DNA from: Gnetum montanum | Taxonomy: Eukaryota > Plantae > Gnetophyta | Length of the DNA stretch: 64,000 bases | Direction of reading: 5' to 3' | Assembly (NCBI GenBank): GCA_015680685.1 | Contig: MNCI01000255.1 | Coordinates: 124,182 to 188,181 of the forward strand | Notes under the pieces: generated by a model | What the model was told of the DNA's origin: nothing | Databases searched by the model: none | What the model saw: only the letters and a program-made list of their open reading frames with translations | Position numbers and translations under genes: made by a program | Part shown: piece after piece, positions 8,629 to 45,699 of the stretch | How the letters are laid out: every line of letters begins with the position of its first letter | Position numbering within the stretch: position 1 is the first letter of the stretch

Positions 8629-8770
8629 AGACATTTAAGTCCTCAAGTGATCTACCAAACCATTTGAGGTACTTGTAGATCCTTTTCTAGGCCCATGGAT
8701 CTACAAGTTAAATTTTTTGAATGGGAATCTTCAACCCATTAGTACCAAAGTTTTTCATTGCTATAGTTTT

Positions 8771-8787
8771 TGGCACTAGAAGGCAGG
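8771..8787 (+). other. Primer binding site, tRNA-Asn type (Tat)
   Basis: TGGCACTAGAAGGCAGG versus TGGCGCTAGAAGGAGGG, immediately after the LTR tail. Confidence 0.75.
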
Positions 8788-9593: not shown

Positions 9594-12500
9594 ATGATTA
9601 ATGAAGAAGACTACAACTTTATGTGTGCAAAAATCCAAGCTAGCTTGTCAATTCCATGCACAAAATCCAAATCCAAGCATGAGTTCAAATTAATCTATAG
9701 AAATGGAAATAAATACATCTCCTCCCCTTATGACAAGATAAAACTAAATGACATTCATACATGCATACTTGCTCAACTAATTGAGATGGATGAGTTAACT
9801 AAATAGGTCAACTTAGAGGGCCACCATGAGGAGTCTATTGAATTTGAAGTCAAACTAAAACTTGATACCTTCATTGGGATCCGTTTCCAACAATTGGCTT
9901 TTGAAACCATTCCACCCAATTCAGCCTCTCTTGCCCCTTCCATGGAGCAAGTGCCCCAACCTTCTTCTCCTCTTGCCTATCCTAATATGTTCAAGTCAAC
10001 ATCCATCATAAGCATCCACCAGGCATAATCCATGCCTTAGTTGGCCTCTCTTTTCTTCTTCACACCTTTTTCCATGTAACCTTGATCTATACAATCATCC
10101 CTTGTATTGTTTACTGTAGCTCATCCCTTCTCCATACCAATGGATTTTTTAGTGGGAACCCAGGCAACCCAAGCATCTCATACCCCATTCACCCACTTTG
10201 TCCCTCAAGTACCTCCTCAAACCTCATTTTAACTGTTTAGTCCCCCTACAACAATGATCACCCAACCTTTACCATCCTTACTATTACTGATTGTGTGACC
10301 ACAAGCCCCCCAACTTGCCATGTAGTCATTTGTACAAAGCCCATAGCCCACCAGAATTCCTTAGTACTTGGATCAAGTCTTCCAGATGATCAAAAATCTC
10401 ACTAAGCTACGAAAGCTCAAAGCCTCTACTACTCAAATGGTCAAGATAATGGACTTCTACAAAGATGATCCCATTAGTCTTGTTGTCCCCCAAATAACTC
10501 TTCTCTCAAGAATTCCCATCCCCCAATTTAGCAAATACAATGAAGAGGGTGATCCCAACTCACACATCATTACCATCCATTCTAATTGCTTGTTATTACA
10601 AGCTTGGCCTCATACCTTTCTGCACATATTTCGTATGTTCCTTATCAAGAAAGGTTTGGATTGATACCATGTGTTACCTAGAGGATCCATTACCTTATTA
10701 GAATACTTAGTTATGCAATTCATTGATCATTTCATGTATAAATTAAAACTTGATATGATTCTTGACTAACTAATGAAGGTCAAGCAAGGGCCCCTTGAAC
10801 CTATGTAAAAGTTCATATAATGATGGAATGTTCTTGTCAATAAGATTCTTGGACCCATAGCTAAGACACATCTTCTAGCCATATTCAAGAAGACAGATAA
10901 TGACTTTATTAAGTCCAAACTCTAATACTTAGACCTGTGGTCCCTCAGTTAACCTTTCTTATAAATGAAGAACATAGGGGATTCTGCTAAAGCTAGCCAT
11001 GACCTTGCCTAAAGATAGGGACAATGGGAAACAAAACCATGCAGTAGTGGCCACAGTCGCCAAAGAGACCAAAACAATGTAGGTGCCAAAAAAATCAACC
11101 AAAGGTCACTATCACCATTGCTCAACCCTCAATGTCTAGGGCTCATATATCTAACCAACCTAGGCCTAACTTTGAGAAAAAGGATTGGTCAAAATATACA
11201 AAGTTGCACTTGAAACCGTTCGATCTCCTTGGCTAGTTGCTCAAAAGTGGCCATATCCAATATAAGCAAATGACTGAGAATGCCCACAAGAGGCATCATT
11301 GTCTATGTGAGATTATCAAGGATCCCACTATGGCAACCAAGATGATCCACCAGTGCTTAAATATTTCAAATTAGATTGATTTTGTGATTATAATCAATCG
11401 CCCAGTCATGCTATCGATTTCTACTTGGCCCTAAAGGATGACTTGATAGAAAATGAAGAGCTGGTTTCCAATTCTATTTGGCCCCAAAGCCAATACATGT
11501 AGGTACATAGTAACCCCTTAAATGCTAACGATGATCCATATACAATATCAATATTCAATGTTGGCAATAATCCTAAACTTGCCTAGGAGCCGTTTGTGAT
11601 TTGGTTGCCTCCTTGTGATGAAAGGACTTTAATTTCATCAAGTTCAAGGACTTCTTTTGTCATAAGGACACCATCACCAATGCCTCCTAAAGAACCATTT
11701 ATTATAAGAGTGCCCCATCCTACCACTATTAAGCCCACAACTCAAGATTACCAACGTCCCCTTGTGGTGGCCAATGCCTCAACCCCTTCATAATCTAATA
11801 ACAAGAGATCATGAATAAAATAATGTAAGAAGCCAAATCCTAAGCCAAATGCTAAGGATAATGCAAAACCAAAAGTGTGGAAAGAGGTAGGTCCACCAAA
11901 GCCTACACCCATTTCAGCCATACCCATGAGTTCTAATGCTTAAGCTTCTTCAATGAGTTTGCTTAAGAGGGACAATAAACAACAAGAAAGGAAGAGGAGC
12001 CTAAACCACAAACATTAAAACATGAGGTAAAAATACTAGGTAGAATGAAGAAATTCAAAAGCAAAAAGAATGAAAAAAATAATGAATAATGGCAAAGACT
12101 TTCTCATTACCATGAAGCAAGTCAAGCTCTTACTTAAATAGAAGAACATCTCATTGAATTTGTATGACTTAGTTATGACCTCTCATGCCCACTATGAAGC
12201 TTTAGTTCATATGTTAACTTCTATTTCTATCAGTGAGGATATCCCAACCAACCAAGAATCTATACACGCAATAATAGTCCCACCCCCCATAAAGAATAAA
12301 CAAGGTCAACTACCTTAACTTTTTGGGACAACGAGGTAAAGATCAAATCACAAAGTGGTAAGGTGTTAAGAGCTCCCTTGTTTATAATGATAAGGGTTGG
12401 CCAGTACAAGGTACATTGGGTACACATAGACAATGAGATAGCTACTAATGTTATCCCCTTTCCTATTGTAGAACATTTGGGATCAACCTAACACATTTAA

Positions 12501-13019
12501 AGCACCTCCACCTCAGTGCTTAAATTATTCAATGGATCATGTGTAGAGTTGAGAGGATCAATTTTGTTGGATTTAGTAGCTAGGAAATAGTTCCTCACAT
12601 CAGCTATTTTCCTTATGGTGGAAGAGACACTAGGATTCAACCTAATCCTGGGGAGACCTTGGCTAGCTAAAGTATAGGCTATCTCTTCCTCAATTCATCA
12701 AGAGATTCATCTTCCCTACAAGGAAGGTAAGATTATTATGCACAGTGACAACATAACTCCCTTGTCTATCAACAATGTTGACATAGAACAAGGATATAAG
12801 GTGGAGTTTCAAGAAGAAGCTTTCATAACCCAAAAGATAGCTAAAAAACCCACTAAAATTGACCAAGGTAGACCTAATAACACACAAGCCACAAACGAAT
12901 CATGGGATGAATTGCCATTTAGCATGGTAAGCGAGTGGAATGTGAAGTATAAAATCATGCAACAAAGACCTTACACATTTTCTAATCTCTCAAAGATTAG
13001 AAAGCAATTGTGCAATTAA
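9594..13019 (+). pseudogene. Tat gag-protease, decayed
   Basis: IPQFSKYNEEGDPNSHI (gag) at ~10515-10570. VHIDNEIATNVI at ~12420 and FNLILGRPWL at ~12636 (aspartic protease). Many stops. Confidence 0.8.
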
Positions 13020-13499
13020 ACAATCTACCTACTTTCTTAACCTTATACCTTATGATGTAGTCTTTAGTTAGTAGTCTTACTTTCAACTTTTACATTTAGC
13101 ATTATATCTATGAACTTTATTTTCATGTTTAGTTTATAATTTCATGCCTATTCCTTTTGTATTTACATAAAATCATAAAAATGCAATAAAAATAAAAAAT
13201 ATGAAAATATGTTTAAAATGTAACGAATAAAAAGCCAATTTAGAATTGAAAACAATAACTCATAATAGTCAAATTCTAGATCAATAGTAGCCATGGTCAC
13301 ATTGTGTGACAAATACAAAAAAATAGATACATCGTGTCCGATAGGCATAGTCATAGCCAATACTTGCATTGTGCAATAAATGACAAGAGCCTATAAAAAA
13401 TAATAAATAGTATCATGAGTTAAAATAGCTAAATAACATTAATATCTAACAACAATGACATGAAATAAATCAAATAACACATCTAGGCCATGAGGGGAG

Positions 13500-16400
13500 G
13501 AGGAGTGTCATCGCTACTACCAAGACCATCGACATGACCAACACCACTAGGAGTCTATAACCAATAATGAAACAATTCAAGCAATTAGTAACCATGGTAA
13601 CTTATAGAAATAACATAGAATAAATAAAAACTATAAAGCCAACACATTAAAACATTTTTTTTTCAAACCTTAGGAGAATCAAGGACAATGTCCTTAGGAG
13701 CAAACTTCTAGAGACTCACTTCAAGCCTATGAAGAATTTGTTCTTCACTCAAATTTGCCTAGTCAACATTTCCTAAATCTACACCTGTTGGAACCTTTCC
13801 CCTCTCTACATCTATTCACTCAAGTGGATCATGAGAAAAGTCTTAGTGGTGGTTACTCTAGAAGCAGTATTAATTAGGGAAATAGGATCATCAGTATCTA
13901 CCACTAATTTCTCAAATAAGCAGAAAACATCCTCTACGACTATACCCTATACAAACAACTTGTACTTATGGTATTTCATGGTTACCTCATGCCATGATTT
14001 TTTGTAGTTTCCTCTTTCCATATTGTAGAGTCGTTTGTGAGCCATTTGCCCCTACCCCACTCTAAGATCAAGGCACAGTGATCATGCCACCCCTTGGCTT
14101 TATGAATTAAATGCTCCATTTGTTTATCCTTCTCCACAATGCTTCTAGCTAGGGCCACCTTCCCCTGGATGGCACTCCAATACCGAGATCACTCAATCTC
14201 CTTAGCACGCAAGGAATCCCTATTGGCTACTTGTGCCTCTATGAATTCCTTATGATCCTTAAGGCTCATAGCTTTATTAGTTAACTCCTTCATTTGTTTC
14301 TCAACTACAACAAGGTGTTCCCACAGCAACTCATTGGAATGTTGGGATTCCAAAACATCAACGCACATGATGCAACATGTTTAGTAGCCCCTTTGTAAAA
14401 CCTCCGTGGAATGCTCTCTACATCTGAAGGCATCTCAAAAAGCTCATCAAGCTCAAAGTCTCGTTAGGAATTCCATCTTATCTTGGGAACTTTCAATATA
14501 AAAAAAACTTAAAATAATAAGAAACAATAAAGATAAAACATGAGAAACTATAATCATATGACCATAAGACATGAAAGTGAAGATTAGGATTACGAAACAA
14601 ACATAAACAAAAAATACAACATAACTATTCTTACCATAATTAGGGTCCATCTATTGCAACCTACCCACCATATCAGACATCATACCTCACATGAACTCCA
14701 CCTTATCTGGGACCTCCACCCAAGGTTTAGTGTAAAATGTAGATGACTTTGAAGGAAGATCATGCCCTACAATGAGCATAGAAGGCAACATCCATTTACA
14801 GTGAAATAACAATAAACAACTAAAATGAAAGTAAAGGTACAAATGTTAAAGCTCACTAGGAAAGTTAAGAAGCATGTCTAATGTGGCATGGTCCTCTAGA
14901 GGTATACCATCTAGAGAGAAGTCCAAGATATCTAATGCCTCTTTAGATCTTCTTTTCTCTTCCTCCTTGTGCCTACGCTCCTCCTTCACAGCAACATGAG
15001 TAGATAGGTGATGTATCCTCCCTACAATGAATAAAGGGCAATAGGAATCAAATGAGCTAGAAAATAGTTTTAACAAAAAAATGAAATATAAAACATAAAG
15101 AAGAAAGAAGAAAACAATTACATACCTCTAATGCCTTGAGTCTTCTTCTTTAGTTTGATTATCATTTTCTTAGAGGCTTCTTAAGCTAGGGCTGAAGTGT
15201 TGTTATTAACTAGTGGCCTTTTTATCTGTTCTTTGGCAACACCATCCACTTTTGCATGAGCTTGCTTGGCCTTCTTCACATTGTCATGGATAAAGTGGGG
15301 CTCTCTTCCCATGCTATTAGGGAAAGTATATTGCAAGCCACTAACATTCTTAGTGATCAGAGATAATGATTCACATTCTTCCTCCATTGGTGGACCTTGA
15401 ATATGCATCACTGGGACAATATCTTGTGCCCAAGGCCCTAAGAGCTAAGATTCATTGCGAAGCACCCACTTTCCATCTCTCTTGATAACCAAAAACTTTA
15501 TGAACCTTCTAAGGTACACATAGAAAAAGGTGAACTATAGATGATGTTGAAAATTAAGGTTACCATGGAGTTTGTGGACTTCCTTCTTTAAGCCACTAAT
15601 GAAGAATGTTACCCAATCAAACTTGGTTCCATTGGTTAAAATCTTCTTCATGGTCCAAGCTTGTTGAACTCCCATAACTTTCTTTTATAACAAGAGCATG
15701 GGAAAGATCCTAAATCAGAATAGATGGTAAGTTTGGTTCACCTCCTCAACAATACACTTACTAAGAGATAATTTAGGACTAGGAAGTGAATTAAGCCAAG
15801 CTTCTAACTCTTCTCTATAGCTTGCATCTTTCCTTGCTCTAGTTGCTACCTCAATGCCATCGTGAGGTATGCCAAAATGCTCACTAAACACAGATTTATT
15901 AATGTTTATAATAATGGGAAAACCATGGACACTAGAGGCAAATCTAGTGATAGCCTCATCAAAAGAATCAATGACATTTAACATCTCAACTGGTCGCATA
16001 GATGGGCTAGGTAACATAAAGTGGTCAAACAAACCTGCTCTATTAACCTCTGCTAGATAACCCCAAGATCCCTATTCGCCAATCATTCATGTGCATCGTC
16101 TACCTTCCCTCACTTGAGGAGAATCTTCTCCTCAATATAGCCTAAAGTGATCACAACAATGGTAGATTCACACATAAAATCTGCAATGCAAGGCAATTAA
16201 CAAGATATGTATGACAATATTAAGCATCAAAAACTATAAAACTCTAAAATGATGACCATATTACAATGACTTATACTTTACCAGGTTTAGGTGAATGTTG
16301 GTGAAGGTTGGGAGCCCTTGCACGTATGCTTATATCTTAGTGTGCCCAAAAATTATGTCCATAGATCTTAGCCACACATGTTTGGTATACCTAAGAATAC

Positions 16401-17073
16401 TGCAACTTATAATTATTAAACTCTTCACCAAGTTGAATAATTACCTGAGCCTTTACGCTTTCACCTTGTCTAAACTCTTCCAAGGAAGTGTAGGCGATGG
16501 ATAAAGTTTGATCATTAGCCACAAGCCCCAAGATAAACAAACAAGACCCAAAGACCTAAGGACGAACAATCGCAAAACAAGACAACCATAGATACAAAAA
16601 CAAAAATGATGCAAAACCAAGCTTACCCTTCAAGCAAGTAGATAGAGCCAGGGGGATTCTAGAACAAAGAGTTTACAATCATTAGGGTATTATCAAGGTG
16701 ATATATTGTGAATTCTGGCATCCACCAAATCAGTGATAACTGCCGAACTACCACCAAGGGTGTGCTCCCCTTTTGCTCTGTCTCCATAGCAACTTTAGGT
16801 TCATCTTTCATGAACTTGAGGATGCATTGGGAAGACCCTCTTGCAAAAGCCTCAATAATGACCCTTGCAACATTCATTGTTAAGTGTGATCATATGATCA
16901 CATTGAACTATTGTAGTAGATAGAGCAAGAACTCCCTAGCACCTGAGCAGAACTACACATGAATCTCCTCATCAAATTGCATGTGGGAAGACAAGCTGTT
17001 TTGGCAAGTCTTTCCAATGAAACATAGGATGCTCACCGGTTCAACCATCACCACAATGGGTTTGAGATATGCC
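13500..17073 (-). pseudogene. Antisense multi-exon gene inside the Tat element (FCP1/NIF-like exon followed by transposon-associated exons), decayed
   Basis: Minus-strand GT donors (16626, 16444, 16282, 15125, 14856) and AG acceptors (17074, 16391, 16181, 15022, 14767) delimit mostly short introns. Long frames such as 15715-16032 are present. The 3' part (13200-13650) recurs after the protease of Tat copy B (48100-48620). Confidence 0.6.
16627..17073 (-). pseudogene. Exon encoding a degenerate FCP1/NIF (HAD superfamily, CTD-phosphatase-like) domain
   Basis: Translation AYLKPIVVMVEPVSILCF...FCSGAREFLLYLLQ*FNVII*S...PLVVVRQLSLIWWMPEFTIYHLDNTLMIVNSLF*NPPGS aligns by eye to the NIF motifs RPG..EFL...F.V.IWS, KDL..IW and NTLL.DDSP....NP. 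Flanked by TGTAG| and |GTAAGC. Confidence 0.6.
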
Positions 17074-17512
17074 CTACATACACAAAAATTTAACGACAGC
17101 ATAAGAGAAGAAAAATATACATGTCGGACGTGGTCTTTACATCAAATACAACTTTGTAACTTAGATTTCATTATTTTAAGAGGCGTCTTCTGATTAAGAT
17201 GCGGAACGTGCTAATCTGATAATAAAAAAGCAGCAAATGCCAAAAGATTACTTCGAGCCAACCCCTTGTATAACTATCGTCCCTGACCAAAATACATCCA
17301 ATTATAAGACGTCCGTTTAACGCAAATTTCATATTGTTCATCCCACTAGTCTCTACCCCAGCAGTGTTGATGTGCTAAGACAGCTCACTTCCTGGAATTG
17401 CAATCTCTGCGGCAAATACATTATAATTTGCAACCCAAAAAAAAGTTCTGGGCCATGCTCTGAATACCAGCGTTGTTGTTGAAGCCCACATTGAGGAGGA
17501 AAGAGCAAGAAA

Positions 17513-18080
17513 ATGCAGCAGCATCTCATGCAAATGCAGCCTATTATAGGAGCAGCTTACTCCTCCAATACCATCACCACTGATCATATCCAGAAGTATT
17601 TGGATGAAAATAGGCAGTTAATTCTGGCAATTGTTGACAACCAAAACCTTGGAAAGTTAAATGAGTGTGCACAGTACCAGGCAAGGCTGCAGCAAAATTT
17701 GATGTATCTTGCTGCCATTGCTGATTCGCAACCTCGAGCACCATCCGCACATGCTCAGATCCCCTCAAACGCAATGATGCAATCAGGTGTCCATTATATA
17801 CAACACCAGCAGCAGGAAGTAACACCTCAGAGCTTGCATACCTCAAGGTCCCAAATGCTTTATTCTCAATAACCTATGGCTGCATTTCATCAAGCGGCAC
17901 AGCAGCACCATCTCTTCACAGCCAACTTGGAATAAATTCAGGAGCAACTAATGGATTACAGATGCTACATGATCAGAGAGCACTCATGTCGTTTCTGGAC
18001 GAGGAGGTGCAAATGTGGGCCAAAATGCAGACGGAGCAGGCTCATCTTATTTAAAAGCTTCTGAGGATTAAGGAAATTAG
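17513..18080 (+). pseudogene. GIF: Intronless GRF-interacting factor (GIF/AN3, SSXT domain) copy with premature stop and frameshifts; 119-aa ORF 17513-17872
   Basis: MQQHLMQMQP...ITTDHIQKYLDENRQLILAIVDNQNLGKLNECAQYQARLQQNLMYLAAIADSQP. TAA at 17870. Downstream shifted remnants SLHSQLGINSG..GLQMLH and SSYLKASED*GN*. No introns across the SSXT domain. Confidence 0.92.
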
Positions 18081-19127
18081 TTTAATCTGTGTTTTTTATT
18101 CGTAGAAAACTGAAGCTGTACTGGTACTGTACATGGTACTCACTAATGCTTCTCAACTTACCATTGCATTTAGAATTTTAACATAAACTTTTTTAGAGAC
18201 CTTTCTATTCTTAGACCTTCTCTTCATTGCGTATATAGGAAATATGATGACAAGGATGCCAGGGTTATATAATACGGCCTACAATTACGATAATTTCTCG
18301 TTTTACTTTGGGTCTTAGCTTAAATATTTGAACTATTATCCATTGTTCATCGGCACTACTGTTACGTTGCGGATGGGTTCCCTTAATTTCCCAGCTTTTG
18401 TCAGAGCGGCTGTGCCCAAGGCTTAAGCAATTGAGATAGCTTATTAAGGTAGCGGAAAACCGATCGGAATAGCTGACAGCAATCGCACCAGTTTTTGAGA
18501 GAAATGCATGAGAGTTCCCGGGCCAACCATGGTCGGAATCTCCAAAGCTCTTATCTACTTACTATCTGCTAAGGGTCTCACGGCGAATAACAGGCCTTTT
18601 CATAAGATTTACAGGAAAGCTATGTGACTGAAAATCATCACGAGGCATGAAACCCCAGCGGTGAAGGCCTAACGGCAACGCCATCAGGCCTCGGAAATAG
18701 TAATTCCTGAATGTTGCCTTCGAATCAGGCTACGATTCGTGTGGCTCTGGTTGCGACAGCGAGAACAAAATCGCATCTACGATACCAATGACATGGATCT
18801 GAAGTTTGTCAGGGTTTCACAGAAGAATTGGTCTCTGTGAACTATCTTTCTTCGAAAATCCACTACCTGTTTCCGAATCTGCAAAGTTGTGTGAGTATTT
18901 AAATATGGCCTTCCTACTATCAACTTCATGCCTATTTAACTCTATGGAAATGTTGCCTTTCATGTGTCCTGTATGAGTTACACTATCATAATTACTGTGT
19001 CTTTGACTATCTCTAGAAATATCATTCATCCATGGGCTTAATCCATTTCACGGGACTACTCTTTTGATGATGCTGATGGCTCGATAAGTTAGTGTCATTA
19101 GCATGTACAACTACACTTTTCACTACC

Positions 19128-19170
19128 AACTCCTCTTCCTTTTAAAAAAAAACTGAAGGGAAGAGGAGTT
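19128..19170. repeat. Inverted repeat, 12-bp perfect stem
   Basis: AACTCCTCTTCC ... GGAAGAGGAGTT around an A-rich loop. Confidence 0.8.
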
Positions 19171-19493
19171 TTTCAAGGAACAATGGACACTGGAACGGAA
19201 AATTCTTACCTCCCATACATAGCCGGTAATTCTTCATCAGCAGGGAGGTCTGTAAATCTTGAAACTACGTCGATGGCTTCCTCCTCCTTCAAGCTCTGGG
19301 TTCCTGCTGCTGCTGCCGTTCTTCCCTGCCATGATTACAGACGATTGGGATCCTGGGCGCTCGAATGAAAAATTGGTAAATCAACAACGTTAATCTTAAG
19401 TTCACGGGTGTTCAACTCTGCTATCTCTAGGCCAGGGCAGAGTTTAGATAACAACCGACAAACGATCAGTTCAAATTAGGAAGTTTCAGGAGC

Positions 19494-19633
19494 AACTAGC
19501 GCCTTTCAAAAACGAAACTTTCCAAAATCGATAAAACAAAATTACCAGCGTCTGCCAAAAACGAAAGTTTCCAAAATGACACCGCTGCGGTATCTGAACT
19601 AGCGTCTGCCGAAAACGGAGCTTTCCGAAATCG
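19494..19633. repeat. Three diverged copies of a ~37-bp CpG-containing unit
   Basis: Approximate consensus AACTAGCGTCTGCCAAAAACGAAACTTTCCAAAATCG, with short unequal spacers. Confidence 0.75.
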
Positions 19634-19739
19634 GGTACTCCATCTCTGCCACCCCCATGGCCATGGCCATGACCATGAAGAAGCACAAGAACGCCACCTT
19701 CAGAACAAAGAGGCTTGTACTTACTAGGGCAGACTCCAT
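19599..19739 (-). CDS. Candidate 46-aa small ORF with a hydrophobic signal-peptide-like N-terminus
   Basis: MESALVSTSLFVLKVAFLCFFMVMAMAMGVAEMEYPISESSVFGRR*, start context ACAATGG. No homolog recognised. Confidence 0.2.
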   Translation of the reverse strand: MESALVSTSLFVLKVAFLCFFMVMAMAMGVAEMEYPISESSVFGRR

Positions 19740-21320
19740 TGTTAGGCTATTGCCTTCGCCGAACTGACAGTACAGGTGCAGTCTTAAGACAAGCCTGAAA
19801 TAGGGAGTGTGCTAAGCCTGAGGTCGAGGCTGAGGACGAACTCTCAATTTCAGGGGGAGCTCCATGGATAGTAGAATAAGAACCATGCCATCACCAGTAC
19901 ACAAGTAGCTATCCTTCCTGTCGATTTCTTGTATGATACGTCTGCTATCCCAAGTGAATTTGGCAAGTCAAATACCTTTGCAAGGAAGAACCACGAACCC
20001 TGAACAGGTTGCAAAGACGGTTGCTTACTCCAAAAATCATAGGAAGAGTCGAATTTATCATCTAAATCGAATAGTTTAATTAGAATAAAACATATGACTT
20101 TAAAAAAATTATTTCTGTTGCTACGTTTTCGTTTCCTGCGCAAGCACCCAGCTGCAATCCAAAGCCGATGTGTGTGTTGCCGTTGAAGTTTATGCTGGCT
20201 GTACATTTTGTACGGGACACATGATAGAAACACCAAACAAAACCAAAACTAAAATTTAGTGTTGTTAAGTGTAACTGGCACTGATGTTTCCGAAATTTGG
20301 AATTTATGATGGTGTCAAGTGGCAACACAGACGATGATGCTGATTTGAACTAGAACCAGAATCTTTGATATCAAGAAGCGTATGTACTTAACCAAAGTAC
20401 TAAGACCGAAGACCGAAGACCGACACTTGCTGGGGGATGGATGGATTTTCAGTGGCTGTCTGCCGCTTGCAACACTCCTTTTGGGCAACATCATGCTGAG
20501 CTGATCATAGATTTGGGTTTCCGGATTGCTGAAAAAAATAAAAATATGCATTGCATTGTCCCGGCAAGCAAAAGGAGTTGTGATTGCTAAATATGCATTG
20601 CTGCTGTTTCTGCAACCAACTCTGAATTTATGGACAACACTGCTGCACAGCTTGACTGCACTGCTCGTCTTGTGCTGGAAAGCTTAGTACGTTTTGTTTT
20701 GCAAATCCTTGGAGGTACGATCCGCCGGCATAGAATCGAATCATGAAGCATTGCCTCTTGCCAATGGCAAATCGCTTACCATGGAACCTCAAAGCGCCGA
20801 ATTTTTGGTTCCGGATAGAAAATTGAGCAGGACCCACTAATTTTGTAGCCAAGATCGCCATTGGTCTTTGTGACTTAAGCAAATTCTAGTAATGATGTTT
20901 CCCATGGAACACCCACTGTCAAAACATGTTCTCGATGAGGTTTGGAAGAGAACTTAACAAACTTGTGAGTTGACAGTGTCTATTAGTTGCAGGCAAAAGG
21001 CAAACACAAATTAGCAGTGGCGCACACATTTTGGTGGAGATAAACACAGCAATTTGACCTTGATTGACTCATGGCGTAGCCTCGGTTGTGGCAACATATG
21101 GAGCTGGCAGTTTTCGAGAATCTATCCCAAGGAAACCCTTGTGGTCAAATGCTCACAAAGGATGGTAGGAACGGTTTGTGCAACACCAAGCACATTGATG
21201 GAAATGCTTGTTTAGATGATAGTTCTATTTCAAAGTTTAATGATGTCCTTCCCGAGATCTTTAAAGCTCTTACCTTTACATTGATATATCGAATAGACCA
21301 AGCAATTATCAGTGTTTTGA

Positions 21321-21348
21321 ATGTGAGTGTTGATATCAACACTCTCAT
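21321..21348. repeat. 20-bp perfect palindrome (28 bp with one mismatched pair)
   Basis: GAGTGTTGATATCAACACTC at 21325-21344. Confidence 0.85.
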
Positions 21349-21416
21349 GGCAGCACGGGGTCATGTTTGAATAAGTTTTTGTCCCATGGTAATTATAAAT
21401 CCTATGGTATTAACTC

Positions 21417-21554
21417 ATACAAGTTATTTGTATGAGTTGCATAGATTAAGCTCAACCGTAATATACAAGTTATTTGTATGGGTTGCATAGATTAAGCTCA
21501 ACTGTAATATACAAGTTATTTGTATGAGTTGCATAGATTAAACTCAACCGTAAT
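21417..21554. repeat. Tandem repeat, 3 x 46 bp
   Basis: ATACAAGTTATTTGTATGAGTTGCATAGATTAAGCTCAACCGTAAT x3 with 1-2 differences per copy. An 11-bp inverted repeat lies at 21412-21438. Confidence 0.92.
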
Positions 21555-22698
21555 ACCTTCGTTGATTTTGTTTATAATACAGTTTGCAATACAGGAATCT
21601 AGTTGAAATACAATAATATCAGCATGCCTAATAGAGTAAGTTGGCTACCCAAAGAGGGTTTGTGCTACCATAAGCCAGATAGCTATGGGTGTAAATATCC
21701 CAATTTTTTTAAAGCTTGGCTGAATATCAATTACATCTCCACCCTGCGCTTTCATTTTTCTCGAGTATAAATAGACAAGTCACGTGAATGAATAGCCTAA
21801 TGTAACCCTATTTTCAATCTTTCATTGACGTTAATACTTGTTCCATTTATAGGTGAAGACAAATTTGGCAGTAAAGAAAATTTATACATTTTGTATTCGG
21901 CACACAAACACCTATGAAGCGTAACAGGGGAAAAATGTGGCAAGTTGACGAAGTGGGAAACGTATAAACCAAAAACATTGAATCTGCAGCTGATTTTTGC
22001 ATAGTTTACTACAGACCAGTAGCTTCTCAATACACAAAACAAAACAGACAGAAATCGTGCTACTTTAATAGACAAAATACCATCCCCACCCTTAAAAATC
22101 ATCATAAAATCAACTTTAAGCAAACAACATCTTTACACATAAAAATTTCTTTGTTTATTGGTTCGATCCATTTAATTATGAATTTTAAAATATATATACA
22201 TATTTATACGGTATAGAGAATTTTAGAACTGCTACATCTCAGGGACGTAATAGAAAATTCGGTTTCAGCTTCACAGGATCACGACGTTGAAGTTGACACT
22301 TGCTTTGGTTTATCCACGTTAAAATCACTCCTGATTTCCAACAATATTCGATATAATTTATTTCAACACATGGCAGTTAAGAAATGCAGTTGAAGTTCCA
22401 ATAATGTCCGGTTGATGCTTAAACCAACTGAAGATGAATTTACGGTACAATTTAGTATAAATTTTGATAACAATATTAGGTTGAGATAATAAGTTGCAGT
22501 AGCCTCCTATTCCTCACACAGATTCATCAGGCTAATATAAATCCTTTATTACAATTTCCACGCAGTGAGCTTCTTCTAATCTAATTACATTGAAACTGAA
22601 AACATAATAATCTAATTCCATAGAGACTGCCTCTACATCGGGACGCGGGGGTCTTTAGTTGCCAGTAACATGGGTGAATAGTTTCCTCCCTGCAAGCT

Positions 22699-23232
22699 TT
22701 ATTCTTCATCACTTATCTCCGGAGATTGAAGCTGTGCAATGCTGGGATTCAGTGATATTGAGGCATCCAGGCTCCCAAGTTCCTTCAATGATTGCCAGGT
22801 CCCCAGGGCAGTGTTCTTTTTTCCTTGTTTCTTCGTTCTTGCAGCTTTCCCCGTAAACGCCCCTTTAGCACCCTTTACCATGCTCAAGAACACACGTAAA
22901 TGCCCCAGGCTTGCTGTTACGGTTGAGTAAGTCGGTAAAGGTATTTCGATCTTCGCCACCATTGCTTGCAGCAAGTTTTTGCGCATGCTTGCTCTGTCTA
23001 AGATCCCTTCCAATGGATTCCTCCGTACAAATGTGTGAAATGCTACTTCTGCCACTGCCTCCTCGGCTTGTCATAACGTGCTGAAAAACCTGGGACTTGC
23101 GAAAGTTTCATTGTTAAAACTCACCACTGCTTTAAAACGGGGAGCATGATCCAAACCTTCATGTATGCAATAGTATGAGTGCAGGTTGAAGCAATTCCGT
23201 TGGGACCATTCTTGCAACTGGTTTCTGAACAT
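22699..23232 (-). pseudogene. DRB2: Double-stranded RNA-binding protein (DRB2/3/5 clade), two dsRBDs, intronless, in-frame stop at codon 54
   Basis: MFRNQLQEWSQRNCFNLHSYYCIHEGLDHAPRFKAVVSFNNETFASPRFFSTL*QAEEAVAEVA...KNLLQ...LPTYST...GHLRVF...FTGKAARTKKQGKKNTALGTWQSLKEL matches DRB2-type MYKNQLQELAQRSCFNLPSY..EGPDHAPRFKA. TGA at 23071-23073 is probably CGA>TGA. The exact paralog is uncertain. Confidence 0.9.
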
Positions 23233-24400
23233 CTCTGCACCACAACATTCAAAAGAAAAGAAGTGGAGTTAGGGTGTGAAGAGAATTCCATGTGGGGTGT
23301 GTCTCCCCTTCCTAAATCACAAATCCTTAAATTATTGATGCTTTTAAATACCAGCCATTATCAACGTCTCCCTGCTGACAACTCAACTACCGATCATTCA
23401 GCATACAAACTTAGGTCTTTTTCCAAGATATAATACTAACTGCCCATTCACAGTAGTCATTCTTGCTGCCTTTCCTCTGCACATCATAATTCAAATGGCA
23501 GTAGCTAAAATGATAGTTCAACTTGATCTGCAAGCTTTGCCGTTTGTCCTCTGATTTTCCCTAAACGTATGTGGCTTCCATTTTTACATCGCCCCGGCCC
23601 AGACGTAGACACTGACTGTTATAGCAATGAGAGTTTTGCTGCAATTACTATTTTTGTTGCACTTATTGTCCCTATGTTTACACACCACTCCTAGGAAACT
23701 TTTTAAACTACATGCTACTTGCATGACCAATCCACTAACATTACACAAAAAAACTGGAGGTTGCAGGGAGTCTGAACCTTTCCCTATGCAACTCCAATGA
23801 TTTTGGTGGCATGTTTGGTAGGGTTCGCATGGTGGCTGACTGGGAGTGAAACGGAAATTGCACGGTACGGAAATTCTGACTTCCTGAATCAGATCCTGGG
23901 TGGTCACCATTGGAGGCGATTCAGAAGATTTTGAGTTCCGCAGATTTTGGACCTATGGTGGCCTGATTCGCAGCGGCCTCTGATTCAGTTGGTGGACGCT
24001 GTACCGAGTAGCCTCTATGTTCCACCTAATACGCCAAGCACGTCTATGCATGATCGAGTTTGCTTGCTGCAATTTGTGAGCATGTTTATGGAAGCCACGG
24101 AACGTTGAACAGCTTTCCACGTTCTGAAAACCCAATCATGTTTTGCTGCAAGTCCCATTGCCTGCTGGGTTTCTGTGGTGTTCTTGAAGGAGTAGATGGT
24201 GTGCGCAATCATGGTCTCTCTCTCTCTTGATTAGGATGGGTACTGTGAGTCAGGATCTGGTCACCGAGATCTTCCTATGGCCCCTGCCCGCCAAGGCTTC
24301 CAGCCGGTGTACAGACCATAGACGACAGCATGATCATCAACAATAATGTAACAGCTATTGACTATTGTTGCTTTTTGCTTCCTGCCACTTGGGATCTAGC

Positions 24401-24435
24401 CATGCGGTCATGCAAACCTCTTGCATGACCACGTG
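24401..24435. promoter_or_regulatory. RY (CATGCA) pair in an inverted repeat plus an adjacent G-box (CACGTG)
   Basis: GGTCATGCAA-ACCTC-TTGCATGACC overlapping CACGTG at 24430-24435. Confidence 0.35.
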
Positions 24436-26199
24436 TGGTGCACTGGAACCCTGATTAGGCTCCCGAAACTTAATCACAACGGCCTTCCTTAAAATAAACC
24501 CTATTTTGGAAAGAATTTTTGTTAAATATCTTTTCTTGATTCTTTTGTCAAAGGCTATAACTACATTATGTTATGTTTTAATAAACAAATAAATAGATAA
24601 AACGTTTGATATTGTTTTTTCTTCTTCTTCTTTTAGTTTCGTTTTCACTTTTGTGAGGTTTGATGTGCAAGTTTCTAAGGGAGCAGAAGAGGCAGAAGTT
24701 CAGGCGGAAACAGAGGGAAAAATCAAAACCGATAAAACCCTCCTCACAATTAGATGTAGGGGATTTGGCAGCCAGAAAAGGGAAATCCGAAGAATCTTTT
24801 CTTGGATTGTCTTACTAAATCAATCTTGGAGGTGCTTCTGGAAGGAGTTCAGTGAGTTGTGAATGGATCTGAGAGCTAGAAGTTGTAGACTTTTTTGAGG
24901 AGGTGTACTTCCTGGAGGCACGGGAAGATAAGCTTGTACAATCAACCGTCCATTTTGCTAATTAGATCTAGTGCTCAAATTTGAGCTAAGTCTTGCTAAA
25001 CCCTATTGTTTGTTATTGTGAGCTTTAATTTCTGTTGTATGATAAAGGTTTCAAATATAAAGCCTTTATTTGTATTTGAAGTTTATGAGCTTTTAGTTAC
25101 TTTAAACTTTCATTTGCTGAGCTTGTTTAATGAACAACCATTTTATTTTTCTGGTTAAGTTACCAATTCAAAGAGCTATTTCGTCTAAATTTCCTTGTTA
25201 AAGTTATTTAAAATTATCAATGTTATTTTACTTGATAAAACACCATGTGGCACTTTCCAACTGAGACTATTATCGAGTTTCTGTACCTGTACAAGAGGTG
25301 CCCTAGGCAATAGTCTCTTAAAATGAGCTTTTGTGGTTGTTGCTATATGACTAATATTTATGCATCAACAATGAGATTCTAAGATTTTTTTATCAAACAA
25401 TTAAAAAAAAATCTTCTTCTTCTAAAAATTTCCTTATTATTCCTTTTATTTGTGAACCTAGAGATCTCTGACCATACTCTATTATATCTATTATATGATT
25501 TTTTGTTCCTTTCATAGCATTCTACTTTTGCAAGAATAAAAGTCATTATTTATGATAGTCATTAATAAAGAAAACTACCATTTTATGATTAAAAAAGTTA
25601 AATTACACCTTCTCATAGGTAGGGCCTTAGATTATGGTTATTGGTTTTGTGAACAATTGATAAAAGGAGTGTTGATGTGGTTACAAGTGGCTAAATCACA
25701 TCTTTTACCTCTATATAATATTGTTCTACTTGCATTTCCTATGTGAAAGCTTAAGCTAATATAAAATTTGAAAATTTCACTTCAAATTCCCTTCAATATT
25801 AGCAACTGATTTCCTGTTATTGCAAGAAACTAAAATACAAAATAATTTAATTAGTTAATACTATTCCGATCTTGTATGCCTTATTTTACTTGATTTTACT
25901 TAGTTGCTCTCTTATTTTACTTTGTTTTTACCTAGTCTTACTTTTTTTTTACCTCATTTAATCATCATTGGCCCTAGTTTACCTTGTAGTGACCTTGTAT
26001 GATCTCACTTTACCTTATTCTACCCTGCTTAGCATTATTTTACTATGTGTTGGATCTTAGTTTTGCTCTGCATTGCTCTGTTGTTGCAGTGCTTTTGCAT
26101 TATTTTAACATTGTTTAACAACTATGTTACATAGATGCCACTTAATATGCTATTGGTTGAACTACAAGGTTTGAACATGGATATATGAACACCTCTAAA

Positions 26200-29100
26200 C
26201 CTGTTTGGATCCTATGGCGATGTTGAATGATCATTTGAGCTCAAATGCTTAGATTTTGTGTCTGGAAACCTCTTCAACCATATAGCCTCAATAGAGAAAG
26301 CCTTAGAGTGGCTAGAGTACGTTGTTAAGACTCTCAACTTAGAGGCCAAAGACATCACGAAAGGCTCTCTAGTTGAAATTTCTATTATAATGCATAACGA
26401 TGAGGAGAAAACACTAAAACTAAGTTCCTCACTTGAATCTCAGTAGACTCAAGACATTACTAAACTCCTCTAGGATAACATTAAAACCTTTGCATGGTCA
26501 TACAAAGACATGCTAGGTCTTGATCCATGCCTAGTACAACACAACATCATACTCAATCCTAGTATCAAACTAGTTAAGCAAAAGGTTTGCAAGATTAGAC
26601 TAAATTTAGCTTTGGCGATTCATGAAGAAATCATGAAAATTGTATTAAGCTAGTTTCATTCAAGTTGTTGATTATGCAAATTGGGTGTCCAACATAGTGG
26701 TGGTCCTTAAGAAAATGGGAGTACATGTATTTGCATCGATTTCTGAGATCTTAATAAGGCAACTATTAAAGATGATTTTTTGTTGCCTAGTATTGATCAA
26801 CTCATCAATACTATGGCTGGAAATGCCCTATTATCCTTTATGGATGGATTATTGAGATACAACCAAGTTAGGATCAACCTAAAGCCTCAGTTGTATACAA
26901 CCTTCATGACCCCTTGGGGAACCTACTATTATACCATGATGCCATTTAATCTAAAGAATGTGGGTGCAACCTATCAATGAGCTATGACCTAGATATTCAG
27001 TGATTACATGCTAGGGTTACTTAATGATTATGTTGATGACATGGAAATCAAGAACAAAATGGTTGATGATCATGCACATGACCTTGACTTAGTTCTCAAA
27101 TGATGTCTCAAATACAAACTTAGGCTTAATTCTAAGAACTGTGTCTTTTGCATCAAAACTGAAAAGATGCTTGGCTTTGTAGTGTCCAAAGTAGGGATAC
27201 ATGTCAATCTTAATATGGTTAAGGCCATAACTATGACATCCCATTCCCAGATGTCATGAAAAATGTCAAATATATGTTATATTAGACATTATGTGTAAGA
27301 AAACAATATATCAAATGTCAAATATATGTAACATTTAACATTATGTGTAAAAAAATGATAAGGAAAATGCAGAAGAAAAGAGGAGAGAATGCTTTATTGA
27401 TGTGAAATAATGTATTTAGATCATGCTTTAAGAGTGTTCCTTGGGATTTTCTTCCTTTGACATCTTTCACTTTGAGGAAATCTAGCACTACCATCATGGT
27501 TAGGCCTATCATCTACAAGAAGCGATGACTAGTCCTCTTCTTATCCTACTTCACTTGGCTTTCATTACTCACCTTTACTAGCTCTGTAACTGCATGCTAG
27601 CATGACCTCTAAGCCCAAGTATAAATGCCTTAGGTCAAACCCCCAAAGGTCACCTTGAGAGACACATTTGTGATTACAATGCACCCTTTTAGGTCTCAAT
27701 TACAACATGCCCTTTCGTGTCTCAATTACAACATATCCTTTTGGGTCTTGTTATGATAATGATAACATTTGTTATGTTGAGGCACCATCTTCGTTATGAA
27801 ACAATACCATTTGGAATGGGGACATTACAATAACCAACTTGGTAGTGCTAACCAACCTTAAGGAGCTTTGGAAACTGCAAGGTAAATTATAATTTATTCA
27901 TATATTCTTGTTAAGGCTTATAGATAAACTACAATCCATGCAACACTTCCTCTTTAGGAGCCAAGTTAATATCATATGCGCTCAATGCCAAAAAGCCTTT
28001 CAAAACCTTAAGCAAGATTTGGCACAGCTACCCATGATCTATCCATCGCAAAAGGATAAACCTTTTTACATTTACCTTATTATCTTTGACACATCCATTG
28101 CCTCTTTACTCTATTAAAATGGAGATGATGGAGTAGAATTTCTACTATACTACCTAAGTCATGCATTAATTGTCTATGAGACTTGATACACCAAAGTTGA
28201 GAAGTATTGTCTAGCCTTAGTTTTCTCATTGAAGAAGTGAAGACACTACCTCTTTAGGAGCCAAGTTAATATCATATGCAAGGACAATATACTAAGAGCC
28301 ATAACGACCAACATTTATGAAAGTAGTTGGATAGCCCATTGGAAAGTCATAACAAATGAATTTGACCTACATTACATCTCTCAAGCCTCAACCAAAGGCC
28401 AAGATATAGCCACACAACTCATAGTTTTTCCAATTGAAGACAATGTAACCATAGACCTTGAATTCCCTAATGTGCATGTCAACATTGCTAATGAGATGCC
28501 CGAGGGTTATGAGACTATCATGCATTTTGATGGAGCTTCAACTGCCCATGGGGCTAGTGCTACTGCCATCATAACATCATCTTACAGTGAGATCCAACTT
28601 TTTTCTTATCATTTTTAATTCTCATGTCCCAACAGTGTGGTGGAGTATGAAGGATTAATCAAAGGAATGATGGTAGCTCATAGCAAAGGAATCAAATGAT
28701 TGATGATAAAAAATGATTCACAACTTGTGGTTAACCAAGTAACTGAGGTTTATGCATGTAAAGCAAAATATTTACAATCTTATTGTGACCTAGCTAAGAA
28801 ACTCATGCAACAATTTCCACATGTGGGCATGCAACATATACCTCGAACTAAGAACACCTTATCTTATGCCATTGCAACCTTAGCCCTAAGTGTGAGGCCA
28901 TATGCTCTTAGCAAGATAACTTCTTTAATAGAAAACTATGCACTTCCCATCACATAAATCAAGGACATCTCCATAGCCACTATTGACACTACCCCTCAAA
29001 GAGAGTGGTATGACAATATCAAGTTTTACCTAACACATGGTGAACCTCCATAGAACCTGACTACTTCTCAAAAGGATGCTATACTTAAAAGATCAAAATA

Positions 29101-30192
29101 ATATGTCATTGTAGTTGATAACACACAATGTCAAAGGTCCTATGATGGCATATTGTCAGTGTGCTTGGGTAAAACTAAAGCTTGCACAATCCTTGAGGAA
29201 GATCATGAAGGGGTACGTGGAGGGCATATAGGACCTAGAGCCATGGCTACAAAGATTAGAAAATTAGGATACTATTGGCCCCATATGAAATGTGATTTCC
29301 TACAGAAGGTTAAGACTTGTGATTCCTATCAACAACATAGTAACTTAGTACACGTGCTACCAATGGGATTACACACTACCCAAATCACCTAGTCATTCCA
29401 ATGATGGAAAATAAACATGATTGGACCAATGATGCCTAAGTCTTCCATAGGGCATAGCTTCATCATCATTGCAATTGAATAGTTTACAAAGTGAATTAAG
29501 GCTATCCCTCTAAGGAAAAGAACATCTCAACAAGTCTATAAATTCATATTAGACAATATAGTGTTTCATTTTGGCATACCTCTGGCCATAGTCACAGATA
29601 ATGGACCATAATTTAGTAGCCAAGAAATGCAAGCCTTTTGTCAAGAACTAAGCATTAAACATTCTTTTCATTACCATATTATCCACAAGCTAATGGGCAA
29701 GCCAAAGCTAGCAACAAGGTCATCATAAACTTTCTTAAGAAGATGTTAAACAATAGCATATGTAACTAGCATGAATGACTTATACATGCACTATGGGCCT
29801 ATAGAAAAACCTTTAGGACTACAATGAGTGCCACTTTGTATAGCCTTATTGAAGCTATTATGCCTCTTAACTTGTAGATTCCATCACTAAGGGTAGCTCT
29901 ATTTGACTTCATCAGTGGAAGAGTAGCAAATACAAGTGCTTCCTCACATCGAACAATATCAAAAGAGGCAAAAAAATAGCATCATCATAATCCGAATAGA
30001 CCAAAAGTTAAGGAAGGAGACCTTATTCTTAATGTTCATCATGAACATGTAGATAAGTTCTCAACCAATTGGAAAGGATCTTTCTTGGTTACAAAAGCCT
30101 ACAATAATGGAGCATTTAGATTGGTAGATATGAATGAGAATGAATTGGCCAATCTAGTCAACCATTTCTATCTCAAACCTTATTATGTCTAA
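26200..30192 (+). pseudogene. Tat/Ogre pol: RT, RNase H, additional archaeal-type RNase H (aRH) and integrase, decayed
   Basis: FAWSYKDM, LPSIDQL, MPFNLKNVGATYQ, YVDDM (~27029). aRH MHFDGAS..EYEGLI..DSQLVVNQV (28520-28800). INT HEGVRGGH..GYYWP, DNG, YPQANGQA. Ends in YYV*. Confidence 0.9.
27232..27829. mobile_element. Solo LTR (598 bp) inserted in the Tat pol, 5-bp TSD ATAAC
   Basis: ATAAC at 27227-27231 and 27830-27834. Termini TATGACATCCCATTCC...GGAATGGGGACATTACA. The pol frame (VKAIT|NL..KELWKLQGK) is restored when the insert is removed. Confidence 0.85.
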
Positions 30193-31297
30193 TGCTAGCC
30201 TATTTTTTCCTGTAGTCCTTGTATGTTTTGTTTGTAGGTACGAATGAATGATGGATACTAATAACTCTTGTGACCTACAACAAGCAAGCCTATGTGACAT
30301 CTTATCTTTTTTTTTCTTTTTGGCATAACAAATGAATTGCAAAACTTTGTAAAATTTGTGAAAAAAAAATATAGATTCCTCATGTTGTACCATTTATAAC
30401 CTATGATGGCACATATTTTACTTACTATTTCATGTGGCCTTAAGAAATCTCTTGTAATAATATGTATTAGTTGTCTTGTTTCCTTATCCTCTTGGATTTG
30501 TGATTATAGAATGAAGCTTCAAGTGATCATGAAGGTTCAACTCATCGTAGCAATAAGTTATCATGTGATCTTGATGCATGAGATTCAATTAGCTTGTCCA
30601 ACTATGTCAAGAGTTCTTACCTCACATCACTTCTATTACCTCTTTTGAACCATGTTCCCATAGCCAAAGTACACTATTCCTTATCCTAAATAATAATGAA
30701 AATTAATGTTTGACATTCATGCACCATGGTCATGTGACATACTTCTCTACATGCTTCACAGATCAAGTTCGTTGAGTGTATCATATCTCATTCAACAAGA
30801 GAATAAAGTAGAATCTGGCATACTCCACTAATCAAGTTCACTAGATGTAACACATCTTCTTTAGTAAGAAAAAAAAATTTAGCCTTGACAATGGAACCTA
30901 ATGAATTTTTCACACCTAAAAGAATAGAAGAAAAAAAAGGGGAAGAAGATGCCAAGAAAGAAAAGAGGCCAATGAAGACTAATGTAAAATAAATGACTCC
31001 AAACCAAAAATGAAAAGAGCCTAATGACCAAAGAGGCCTAAGGATGGAGTGTTAGTTCCTCCAAAACATTGTTGAGTAACTAGCATTTCAAACATGAAGC
31101 ATGAAGACCTTTAGCAAGTTCACATAGCATAATCATATCATTACCATGATGTTGACATTTGGAATTCCTTGTTAGCCAAAATGACCATGCCTCATTAATC
31201 ACTATAATCATTGATCCCATCCCAAACTCTTGACATTTCATCATGACCTTCTTTCACCATCATGAGCACTCCCGAATCAAGTGTGGAGAGAGAGCAT

Positions 31298-32389
31298 TAG
31301 TCATGAACCTATAGTGGTGCCTCACATTCTTTGTTGATGTCCCTTAGGTCAATCCTCAAAACATCAACAGAGAGGAACCAATGAAACATTCCAAAGAAAT
31401 TCATATTATAATGCAGGACCAAAAGTCTTTCTAACTTGGTGGAAAAATAAAGGCAGATACAATTGCCTTATTTCCCCACTAATGCTAGCGTCATGGCCTC
31501 ATGTTATCGATAATGATGCTAGCATCGTTACCTCATGTTACTAACAATGATGCCAGCATCATTACCTCATGTTACTAACAATGAAATTAGCATTATTATC
31601 TCATGTCATTGACAATGACATTAGTAATTGTTACCTCATGTCACTGATGCTCAAAATGACACTAGTGTTATGGTCTTCATGGTATTGATGTTGACGCTAA
31701 CATCATGACTTCATGGTACCAACGTTGATGTTAACATCTTGGCCTAATGGTACTAAAACTAATGCTAACATTGGATGTTGCATGTAGATGTTGTAGGTAT
31801 GATAGAATTTGCTAGAAATTTGCAACAATCATGATAGAAACAATTAGCAACAACCTACTTCATCATAGGAACTTTTGGCATTTGACACTTACATCGAACG
31901 TAAGATTTTTGAGTAGTGTAGGCACCCAATAGTCCATGGCAACCAACATTACTCTCTCATAACATAAACCACCAGAGTATATAACCAAAGCTAAGGAATA
32001 GATCTATGTGGATACATTTCCCTATGGGAATATCAGAGCTTAATGATGATATTGCATCTTTGGGTTTTCTAAAATCCATAATCTAGATCTCCTAAACCTT
32101 TGCTTGTAACATTTCATTTTACAACATTAATATCAAAGTTGTAGTTTTGCCTTTATTTTGTCATTTTTCTATTCTGGTATTTCACAATGTATCTTAAATT
32201 AAAGATGATTTATTTGCACTTTTTATTTTATTTTTTGTATTACCCGATAACAGACATTTAAGTCCTCAAGTGATCTACTAGACTAGTTGAGATGCTCGTA
32301 GATCCTTTTTGAGGCTTATGGATTTGTAGGTTTAAACTATTTTGATAGGGATCTTTGGCCCTTTAGCATCAAAATTTTCCATTAGTACA
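31298..32389 (+). repeat. 3' LTR of Tat element A (contains a ~34-bp degenerate tandem array at ~31480-31770)
   Basis: Preceded by PPT GGAGAGAGAGCA and ends ..CATTAGTACA. Homologous to 43179-44259 (minus). Confidence 0.75.
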
Positions 32390-44259: not shown

Positions 44260-45699
44260 ATGCTCCCTCTCCACACTTGATTTTGTAACTATTGAATCAT
44301 GCCAATGAGTGCTCATGATGGTGAAGTAAGGTTCCAATGGAATTTCAAGAATTTGGGATAAGAAAAAGGCTATATCTAGCTATTAGGATGGTCACTTTGC
44401 CTATTCAAATGATCACATGGGCTAACAAAAAATTCTAGATGTTGACATCATGGTTGTGGCATGGTGGTGACCTATTTACTGAATAAGGAGGTCTACATGC
44501 TTTGTGATGGAATCGTTGGTTATTTTATGATGTTTGGAGGAACCAGCACTTTGTAATAGGGTTTCTCTAGCCACTTGGCTCTCTCTCTCTCTCTTTCTCT
44601 TTTTTATGGAAAAGAAACCTTCATTAGGGTTCATTGCCAAGGCTAAAATTGAATTTTCTCACTAAATGAGATGTGTTATATTTAGTGAACTGGATTGGTG
44701 GGGCATGTCAAAGGATATGTCACATAGTCATGGTGCATGAATGTCAAACATAGGTTTTCATCATCAGTAAGGTAAGGAAGGCTGAAGTTTGGCTACGAGG
44801 TTATGGCTTAGGAGGGGTAACAAAGATGATGTCAGGCAATCACTATTGGAAAAATGAAACAAGCTAACTGAATCTCATGTATCAAGATCACATGGTGACT
44901 CACCTTTGCAATGAATCACACCCTTGTGATGACTCTGGGCCCATCTTGTAAGCACAACTCAAGTCAAATAATACATGTGTTTTCAAAAGGTTACATGAGG
45001 CAACAAGTAGATATAGGCCTCTATAAGTTACAATTGGTGGGACTTGAGAACTCTGTATTTTGCATTATAGATTTTTACAAAGTTTGTAGTATTCTAAAAT
45101 GTCAAAGAGATAAGAGGTCATGCAAGCTTGCTTGTTGTAGGCTACTAAAATTATCAACATCGATCATCCATTCAAACCTATGAACAAAGGCAAACAAAGG
45201 TGATAAGCAAACACATCAATGTTAGACATAATAAGAGTCATGTAAGGGCTCTGATGTTGCCTCACAGGGATTTGATGGTGTCTTGAGAAAACTAAGGTTC
45301 TAGTGAGAAACTTGGTTTTGGAGTTTTCTCCTTACCATTATGGATTGAAGTGAGGAATTTAACTAAGGAATTCCTTATGATGTTTATAGTCTCAAGTTCA
45401 AGAGCAGTTAAGCCATTGCATGGCATTAAGGCTAGATGGTCGAGGCTCACAAGCTCTCAATTTAGGCATTCAAGATCAACTTGGTCGAATGACATCACTA
45501 GAAGGGTCTACTCAAGATCAAAGGCTAGTCGAATACTCCCACATTTTTCTAGCTCAATCCTGCATGTTAACATAAGCATGTTAACACCTCAAGTAGCATA
45601 TTTTCTAAGCTGGGCCTTGTTTTGCCACTTTCTACCCTCCATGACTAATCTGACGGTATTCTCATGTGCGCTGCGAACTTCCTTGCTTTATGGTTTTCA

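Follow-up and report, generated by a model that had tools for sequence, protein, structure and literature searches.

We describe a decayed, intron-containing gene that lies antisense within a long terminal repeat (LTR) retrotransposon of Gnetum montanum. The stretch analysed, hereafter the window, comprises 64,000 nucleotides of contig MNCI01000255.1 (assembly GCA_015680685.1, positions 124,182 to 188,181), and all coordinates below are positions in it. The antisense gene sits inside a Tat-clade element (element A), between gag-protease and pol, and a second copy of the family (copy B) lies in the same window on the minus strand. Our reading, to which we assign a probability of roughly 60%, is that this is a dead spliced antisense gene between the gag-protease and pol of an old Tat-clade family, with a first surviving exon that likely encodes a NIF/HAD domain, which would have been the phosphate-handling module of an accessory regulator. 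It is likely, then, that a Tat family made its own accessory regulator.

The gene occupies 13483-17073 on the minus strand, where seven exons and six introns can be laid out with splice sites chosen by eye, an anatomy we hold with high confidence. All six introns are GT-AG, 71-145 nt long and T-rich, with a GC content of 26% and 52% T; the exons (2966 bases) have 41% GC and 29% T. Exon a (16627..17073, 447 nt) has AG ahead of it and GT behind, in agreement with the canonical splice sites reported in the initial annotation. It resembles the NIF/FCP1-homology domain, likely of the DLNG-type branch, contains 4 stops in 148 codons and is the first surviving exon, the upstream exon or exons being lost. 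That further exons follow was also correct, and six do: exon b (16282..16555), which holds the segment NDQTLSIAY; exon c (15126..16180), a domain of ~350 codons that is weakly PMD-like; exon d (14857..15021), charged and without a stop in the implied frame; exon e (14635..14766); exon f (13669..14489), with frameshifts and a charged, helical-looking stretch; and the last exon, g, with the stop codon (13483..13554), followed by a likely 3' untranslated region (UTR; 13088..13482) that is common to copy B. Over the first 40 codons of the next exon, the splice-implied frame is the one with the fewest stops at junctions b/c, c/d and e/f, and junction f/g is supported by copy B. The copy at 13483-17073 is dead. 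Its 5' end has been replaced by ~8 kb of host-like cargo, which means that start and promoter have been either lost or displaced.

The antisense gene is transposon-borne and multi-copy, its exons more so than its introns. DNA contigs were aligned to 12900-17600 at 80% likeness (2111 and 2443 contigs, most of them less than 90% alike), and their summed depth, which is a relative sign only and not a copy number, was 41-934 over 13528-17138 and 10-37 over 17139-17600. Depth over the NIF core was 406 and 379, and across 23 bins it tracked the share of exon sequence (Spearman 0.53, P 0.01, and 0.65, P 0.0008). Exon b, the adjoining intron and exon a are contiguous in another copy, ~84% alike, which aligns as far as 17075. 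The CpG observed/expected ratio was 0.18 in the gene, 0.14 in gag-pro and 0.12 in pol, with 0.61 in the cargo. These results bear on the idea that the NIF exon was captured from the host and is unique to this copy, like the GIF and double-stranded RNA-binding domain (dsRBD) pieces of the cargo. The exon does abut the cargo at ~17080-17100, and capture of gene fragments by transposable elements (TEs) is common in gymnosperms (PMC13477047; papers are cited by accession throughout). The exon, however, is multi-copy and shares the CpG depletion of the element, in contrast to the cargo, which is CpG-rich and near single-copy. In another copy, moreover, it is linked to exon b. This idea is largely refuted and keeps very little probability.

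Element A is bounded by the 3' ends of its LTRs, at 8629..8767 (5' LTR, plus strand, cut by a Copia insertion at 3427-8629) and 32213..32402 (3' LTR, plus strand). Only partial LTRs can be compared, and their ends are identical at 107/139 positions (77%; 8629-8767 vs 32252-32391). A primer-binding-site-like motif just behind the LTR end (8771..8787, plus strand) recurs at 63071 (minus strand) in copy B. The gag remnant (10170..11740) and the protease remnant (12150..13010, 56% identical to copy B), both on the plus strand, were recognised by inspection and through homology to copy B, neither having a Pfam match; metagenomes yielded no locus related to the protease motif. Beyond the antisense gene and the cargo, 1.2 kb of AT-rich DNA leads to pol (26140..29950, plus strand), with matches to RVT_1 (E 1.6e-10), RT_RNaseH_2 (1e-17), RVT_3 (6.4e-15), Integrase_H2C2 (3.5e-7) and rve (4.2e-12). 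The RVT_3 match falls between RNase H and integrase, and we take it to be the additional RNase H, giving the order reverse transcriptase (RT), RNase H, additional RNase H, integrase. It is possession of an additional RNase H that defines the Tat clade (PMC6317226), and this order occurs outside angiosperms too (PMC10508981; PMC13468544). A 3' internal region (30179..31473, plus strand) is common to copy B (45235-44073).

Six blocks of copy B are collinear with element A at 66-74% identity: gag, protease, the 3' end of the antisense gene, the start of pol, the 3' region and the LTR end. The antisense block (13088-13657 vs copy B 48643-48110) aligns over 594 columns with 62% identity (E 5e-25). 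Last acceptor, last exon and stop fall within it and are in register in copy B, where last exon and 3' UTR (48110..48643, plus strand) lie directly behind the protease. The initial annotation had the 3' region of the gene shared with copy B, and it is, last exon included, but the sharing is confined to the last ~570 nt and does not reach the NIF exon. The place of the rest of the gene is taken in copy B by 2.6 kb of CpG-rich DNA unrelated to element A (45530..48100). Copy B also lacks RT to integrase, the start of pol joining the 3' region directly at 45235-45239. Because copy B repeats the six blocks in the same order, gag-pro, antisense gene, pol is the likely layout of the family. Depth, introns, a pol with additional RNase H and copy B together uphold the earlier description of the gene as TE-borne, intron-containing, antisense to gag-pro-pol and of Tat affiliation. 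That description mentioned neither the location between protease and RT nor the loss of the 5' end to host-like cargo.

Two other accounts of this arrangement were weighed. Element A could be chimeric, with gag-pro and the antisense gene coming from one insertion and pol from another, the position of the gene being accidental: 9 kb of other DNA separates the antisense gene from pol, the alignment of 35-39 contigs breaks off directly behind the protease, at 13003-13010, and only the short LTR ends (77%) can be compared. Copy B, however, is an independent insertion on the other strand with the same six-block order, and we regard a chimera as improbable. Alternatively, a fossil DNA-transposon gene (CACTA TnpA-like or MULE) may have landed in the ancestor's spacer between gag-pro and pol and persisted there as a passenger of no service to the retrotransposon. 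CACTA TnpA-like and MULE genes usually have many short introns, which speaks for this account, as does the relationship between the PMD and the PMDs of MULEs (PMC4408406). Yet exons are better kept than introns among the copies, and element A and copy B share the last exon, its acceptor and the stop at the level of divergence of gag and protease; Pfam gave no transposase family match for the antisense gene, and no terminal inverted repeats were found in 16900-26700. We therefore consider a passenger DNA-transposon gene unlikely, if less so than a chimera, and a selected accessory gene fairly likely.

We then considered the identity of exon a. Its translation reads as quoted in the initial annotation, with NIF-like motifs, and profile tests make a NIF-type domain likely. 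In the Pfam check that the annotation had suggested, NIF (PF03031) was the sole match, but with an E of 0.019 and 15.1 bits it fell below the gathering cut-off of 21.8. For a NIF subfamily profile, natural NIF proteins were fetched by a short motif and widened to 34, 29 of which were aligned. The resulting hidden Markov model (HMM) matched exon a with P=1e-5; none of 2000 shuffles (1560 scored) did as well, and exon a ranked top of 3438 window segments (2644 scored). BLASTP aligned exon a collinearly with a natural NIF protein over 94 residues (pairwise E 0.001), and with a second protein at E 0.029. By hhalign the probability against the subfamily profile was 75% over 102 columns, and 28% with another setting, at which exon a nevertheless exceeded 150/150 shuffles and 150/150 window segments. 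The NIF alignment requires a 3-residue gap ahead of NP, the seeds having a spacing of 6 in 24 of 29 (the other five were unmatched by the pattern), and another genomic copy has 9 additional bases at 16670-16675, coinciding with that gap. These bases are an independent check on the alignment. The NIF identity of exon a is thus probable, not proven.

The motifs kept in exon a (L..IW, NTL.I..S, NP and an S after the aromatic strand) fit, as sequence patterns, the uncharacterised DLNG-type branch, which we presume to be C1271.03c-like, better than they fit FCP1/SCP/CPL. This call rests on motifs and not on score, because the per-model Pfam P was no worse than the subfamily P. Exon a resembles DLNG-type proteins in motif order and spacing, S, W, NTL, S and NP being kept over ~100 columns; it differs from them in that this copy lacks Asp both at motif I and at the DD motif, in being fused to ~800 further residues and in being TE-borne. 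Its only Asp residues are 34, 90 and 127. By seed spacing, motif I (DxDxT or DxNG) is expected at residues 9-15, where this decayed copy has no Asp, and the DD metal-binding position reads V-N, so the earlier statement that both catalytic motifs are unpreserved holds here. The label of pseudophosphatase, on the other hand, cannot be read from one copy with so many stops, which is too decayed to speak for the family. Since Asn already stands in place of the second Asp in the nearest branch (28/29 seeds carry Asn at the second motif-I position), we lean towards a weak or non-canonical enzyme in working copies.

FCP1, SCP and CPL phosphatases of the RNA polymerase II (Pol II) C-terminal domain (CTD) belong to the same Pfam family and combine DxDxT with BRCT or dsRBD partner domains. 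The antisense gene has no DxDxT, and no BRCT or dsRBD belonging to it was found; the Pol II CTD or HYL1 as substrate, a link drawn in the initial annotation, is not indicated. Compact NIF proteins of the DLNG type that stand alone are encoded on viral contigs as long as 196 kb; among viral contigs no locus related to exon a or to the protease was found. PDB sequence searches returned no meaningful match, a single-sequence structure model of exon a was uninformative (pLDDT 35), and a further structure prediction was likewise too poor to use (pLDDT 39).

Several results weigh against the interpretation of a spliced gene with a NIF exon. In the anatomy, the implied frame is best in only three of the six next-exon heads, with splice sites placed by eye; at junction d/e it has 2 stops where another frame has 1. 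A frameshift is needed after the a/b splice, because the frame of the NDQTLSIAY segment differs from the one implied by the splice, and third-position bias was only 10/20 (P 0.09). The segment had been said to resemble the NIF C-terminal helix; exon b has no match to the NIF subfamily profile, and this likeness is not confirmed, a C-terminal part of the domain being possible by eye only. The summed contig depth is, as said, a relative measure. Another question had been whether the NIF exon is single-copy and unlinked to Tat sequence elsewhere in the genome: it is multi-copy, and one further copy links it to exon b, but at 80% likeness no single contig joins it to exon c or to gag or pol in another copy. 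A search of 1.84 billion representatives returned 2 matches, both of them spurious hits to repeat proteins, and a word-based search with exon a found no relative among 402 longer candidates.

To the same side belong the remaining product and the transcripts. The likeness of exon c to the start of a PMD was seen by eye, and exon c has no Pfam match, PF10536 included. An HMM from 21 PMD seeds (49 metagenome loci, 45 translated, 21 unique with at least 150 residues) matched exon c weakly (P 0.06; 60/500 shuffles equally good). Its hhalign probability against the PMD was only 2%; the alignment had the expected register, and its score narrowly exceeded 150/150 shuffles and 108/108 segments. A word-based search with exon c found no relative among 1318 candidates, and viral contigs no locus related to the PMD motif. 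A coiled coil in exon f was not supported (heptad test p 0.68). None of 5 RNA runs placed reads on the NIF exon, and no splice joint was listed.

The points on exon a itself raise the prospect that it belongs to a TE gene but resembles NIF by chance, the protein being of another, unknown family. Besides the Pfam score and the uninformative fold model, an unrelated 37-residue chance match near +4855 reached 11.2 bits with the subfamily HMM, next to 11.5 for exon a, and no catalytic Asp is present. A chance likeness would nevertheless have to account for a collinear match over ~100 columns that beats all shuffles, and for a predicted 3-residue gap that an independent copy bears out; we think it quite unlikely, and continue to read exon a as a probable NIF exon.

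At the locus itself (13483-17073) the RNA runs compared gave no sign of expression: at 90% likeness, three runs placed next to nothing on 13441-17367. At 80% likeness, one unstranded run covered parts of exons c and f at 4-13-fold depth with reads from diverged relatives, and a relative of the antisense gene may thus be expressed. Reads in introns, seen in one run, were rejected as poly-A/T artefacts by their loose ends.

The cargo that replaces the 5' end of the gene (17100..24950) is CpG-rich, host-like and near single-copy. It holds a GIF/AN3 copy with its 5' UTR on the plus strand (17298-18183, the copy also being given as 17495 on; SSXT E 5.5e-23), which is likely processed because the mRNA reads of an expressed gene that align to it, 90-99% alike, had no joints listed. 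A double dsRBD of DRB-like type, antisense to the element (22615..23316, minus strand; dsrm E 5e-10), is presumably DRB2-like. A CPL-like join of this dsRBD piece with the NIF exon was rejected: the two are in the wrong order, 5.5 kb apart and of different CpG signature. A piece of a second expressed transcript lies at 18443-19142, with reads in two RNA runs only. Both element copies have unrelated CpG-rich DNA at the same spacer site ahead of pol (17100-24950 and 45530-48100), and this spacer is possibly a capture hot spot.

Later insertions have broken up both copies. The Copia element in the 5' LTR of element A (3427-8629, minus strand) has LTRs 83% identical and a gag match at E 1e-16. A nested LTR element (49966-59863, plus strand) splits copy B between gag and protease; its LTRs are 85% identical, it has a Retrotrans_gag match (E 1.4e-6), is Athila-like by eye and contains a 723-base N gap. 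Tandem arrays occur at 41397-41805 (45 bases), 62444-62599 (15), 21417-21555 (46) and 31485-31771 (34). No Rfam or tRNA match was obtained.

Parts of this arrangement are known, namely 3'-end antisense extra genes in Tat elements (PMC4408406; PMC11963269) and enzyme capture by Gypsy elements (PMC9289625). Antisense extra open reading frames (ORFs) have been described in the gymnosperm Tat lineages III (PMD) and V (PMD-coiled coil) and in Retand, Grande and RIRE2 (Transposase_28; PMC4408406; PMC7264820; PMC11963269). Like them, the Gnetum gene is an antisense accessory gene inside an element with additional RNase H and is family-wide rather than single-copy, and for Grande gene23 an own promoter has been proposed (PMC7264820). 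Unlike them, it lies between protease and RT, the described ORFs lying between pol and the 3' LTR (in Ogre, 5' and sense), and it contains six or more introns and probably a NIF domain, its exon c being only weakly PMD-like. Ogre (Tat lineage IV) is laid out as gag-pro, an intron and pol (PMC4408406, with reference to Macas and Neumann 2007 and Steinbauerova 2008), in which a spacer likewise separates protease from RT, RNase H, additional RNase H and integrase; here, in contrast, the spacer is many kb long and holds a multi-exon antisense gene.

As a functional analogy only, a possible pairing of a PMD-like domain with a phosphatase fold recalls MAIN/MAIL1-PP7L and MAIL3 (PMC7156037), but PP7 is a host-encoded PPP metallophosphatase, whereas the module here is TE-encoded, of HAD/NIF type and accompanied by a weak PMD likeness. 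A host-type enzyme domain fixed in a Gypsy family has a parallel in the AlkB/2-ODD domain of orchid Gypsy elements, which is intact and has been assayed; NIF is not among the captured domains named in the accessible part of that paper, which covers angiosperms only (PMC9289625). The terms NIF, FCP1 and phosphatase are absent from the accessible part of the supplement of PMC6317226, although its table of extra-ORF domains may lie elsewhere. Searches of the open-access literature turned up neither a plant LTR element with a NIF domain nor a multi-intron antisense gene located between protease and RT, though such cases may stand in subscription papers or supplements.

In the mechanism we propose, the antisense gene would be driven by an internal promoter of its own in the spacer ahead of pol and would yield a spliced antisense mRNA. 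Its introns would persist through retrotransposition because the genomic RNA of the element, which reverse transcription copies, is the other strand. Splicing that removes the spacer, as in Ogre, might give access to pol, or pol might have a transcript of its own; the spacer and AG-like sites ahead of pol are present, with no spliced reads. The product would be ~1000 residues or longer, comprising NIF, a weakly PMD-like domain and a charged tail. By analogy with Grande gene23 and PMD/PP7-type modules it could be nuclear and keep the element transcribed, a role we offer only tentatively. A bolder version appears unlikely: a three-unit Tat family (gag-pro, spliced antisense gene, pol) would encode a NIF-phosphatase plus PMD-like protein as a counterpart of the host MAIN/MAIL1-PP7L module, countering silencing, and the same spacer would be a hot spot for the capture of host genes.

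Many plant Gypsy elements have antisense extra genes, whose function is unknown, and a search for their spliced antisense transcripts has been called for (PMC7264820). Genes split into short exons inside gag-pol would be missed by screens based on ORF length, such as the 250-codon rule of PMC6317226, and may therefore be under-counted. The layout described here also raises the question of how pol is expressed across a multi-kb spacer, and a recognisable enzyme fold would open the function of an antisense gene to a direct test.

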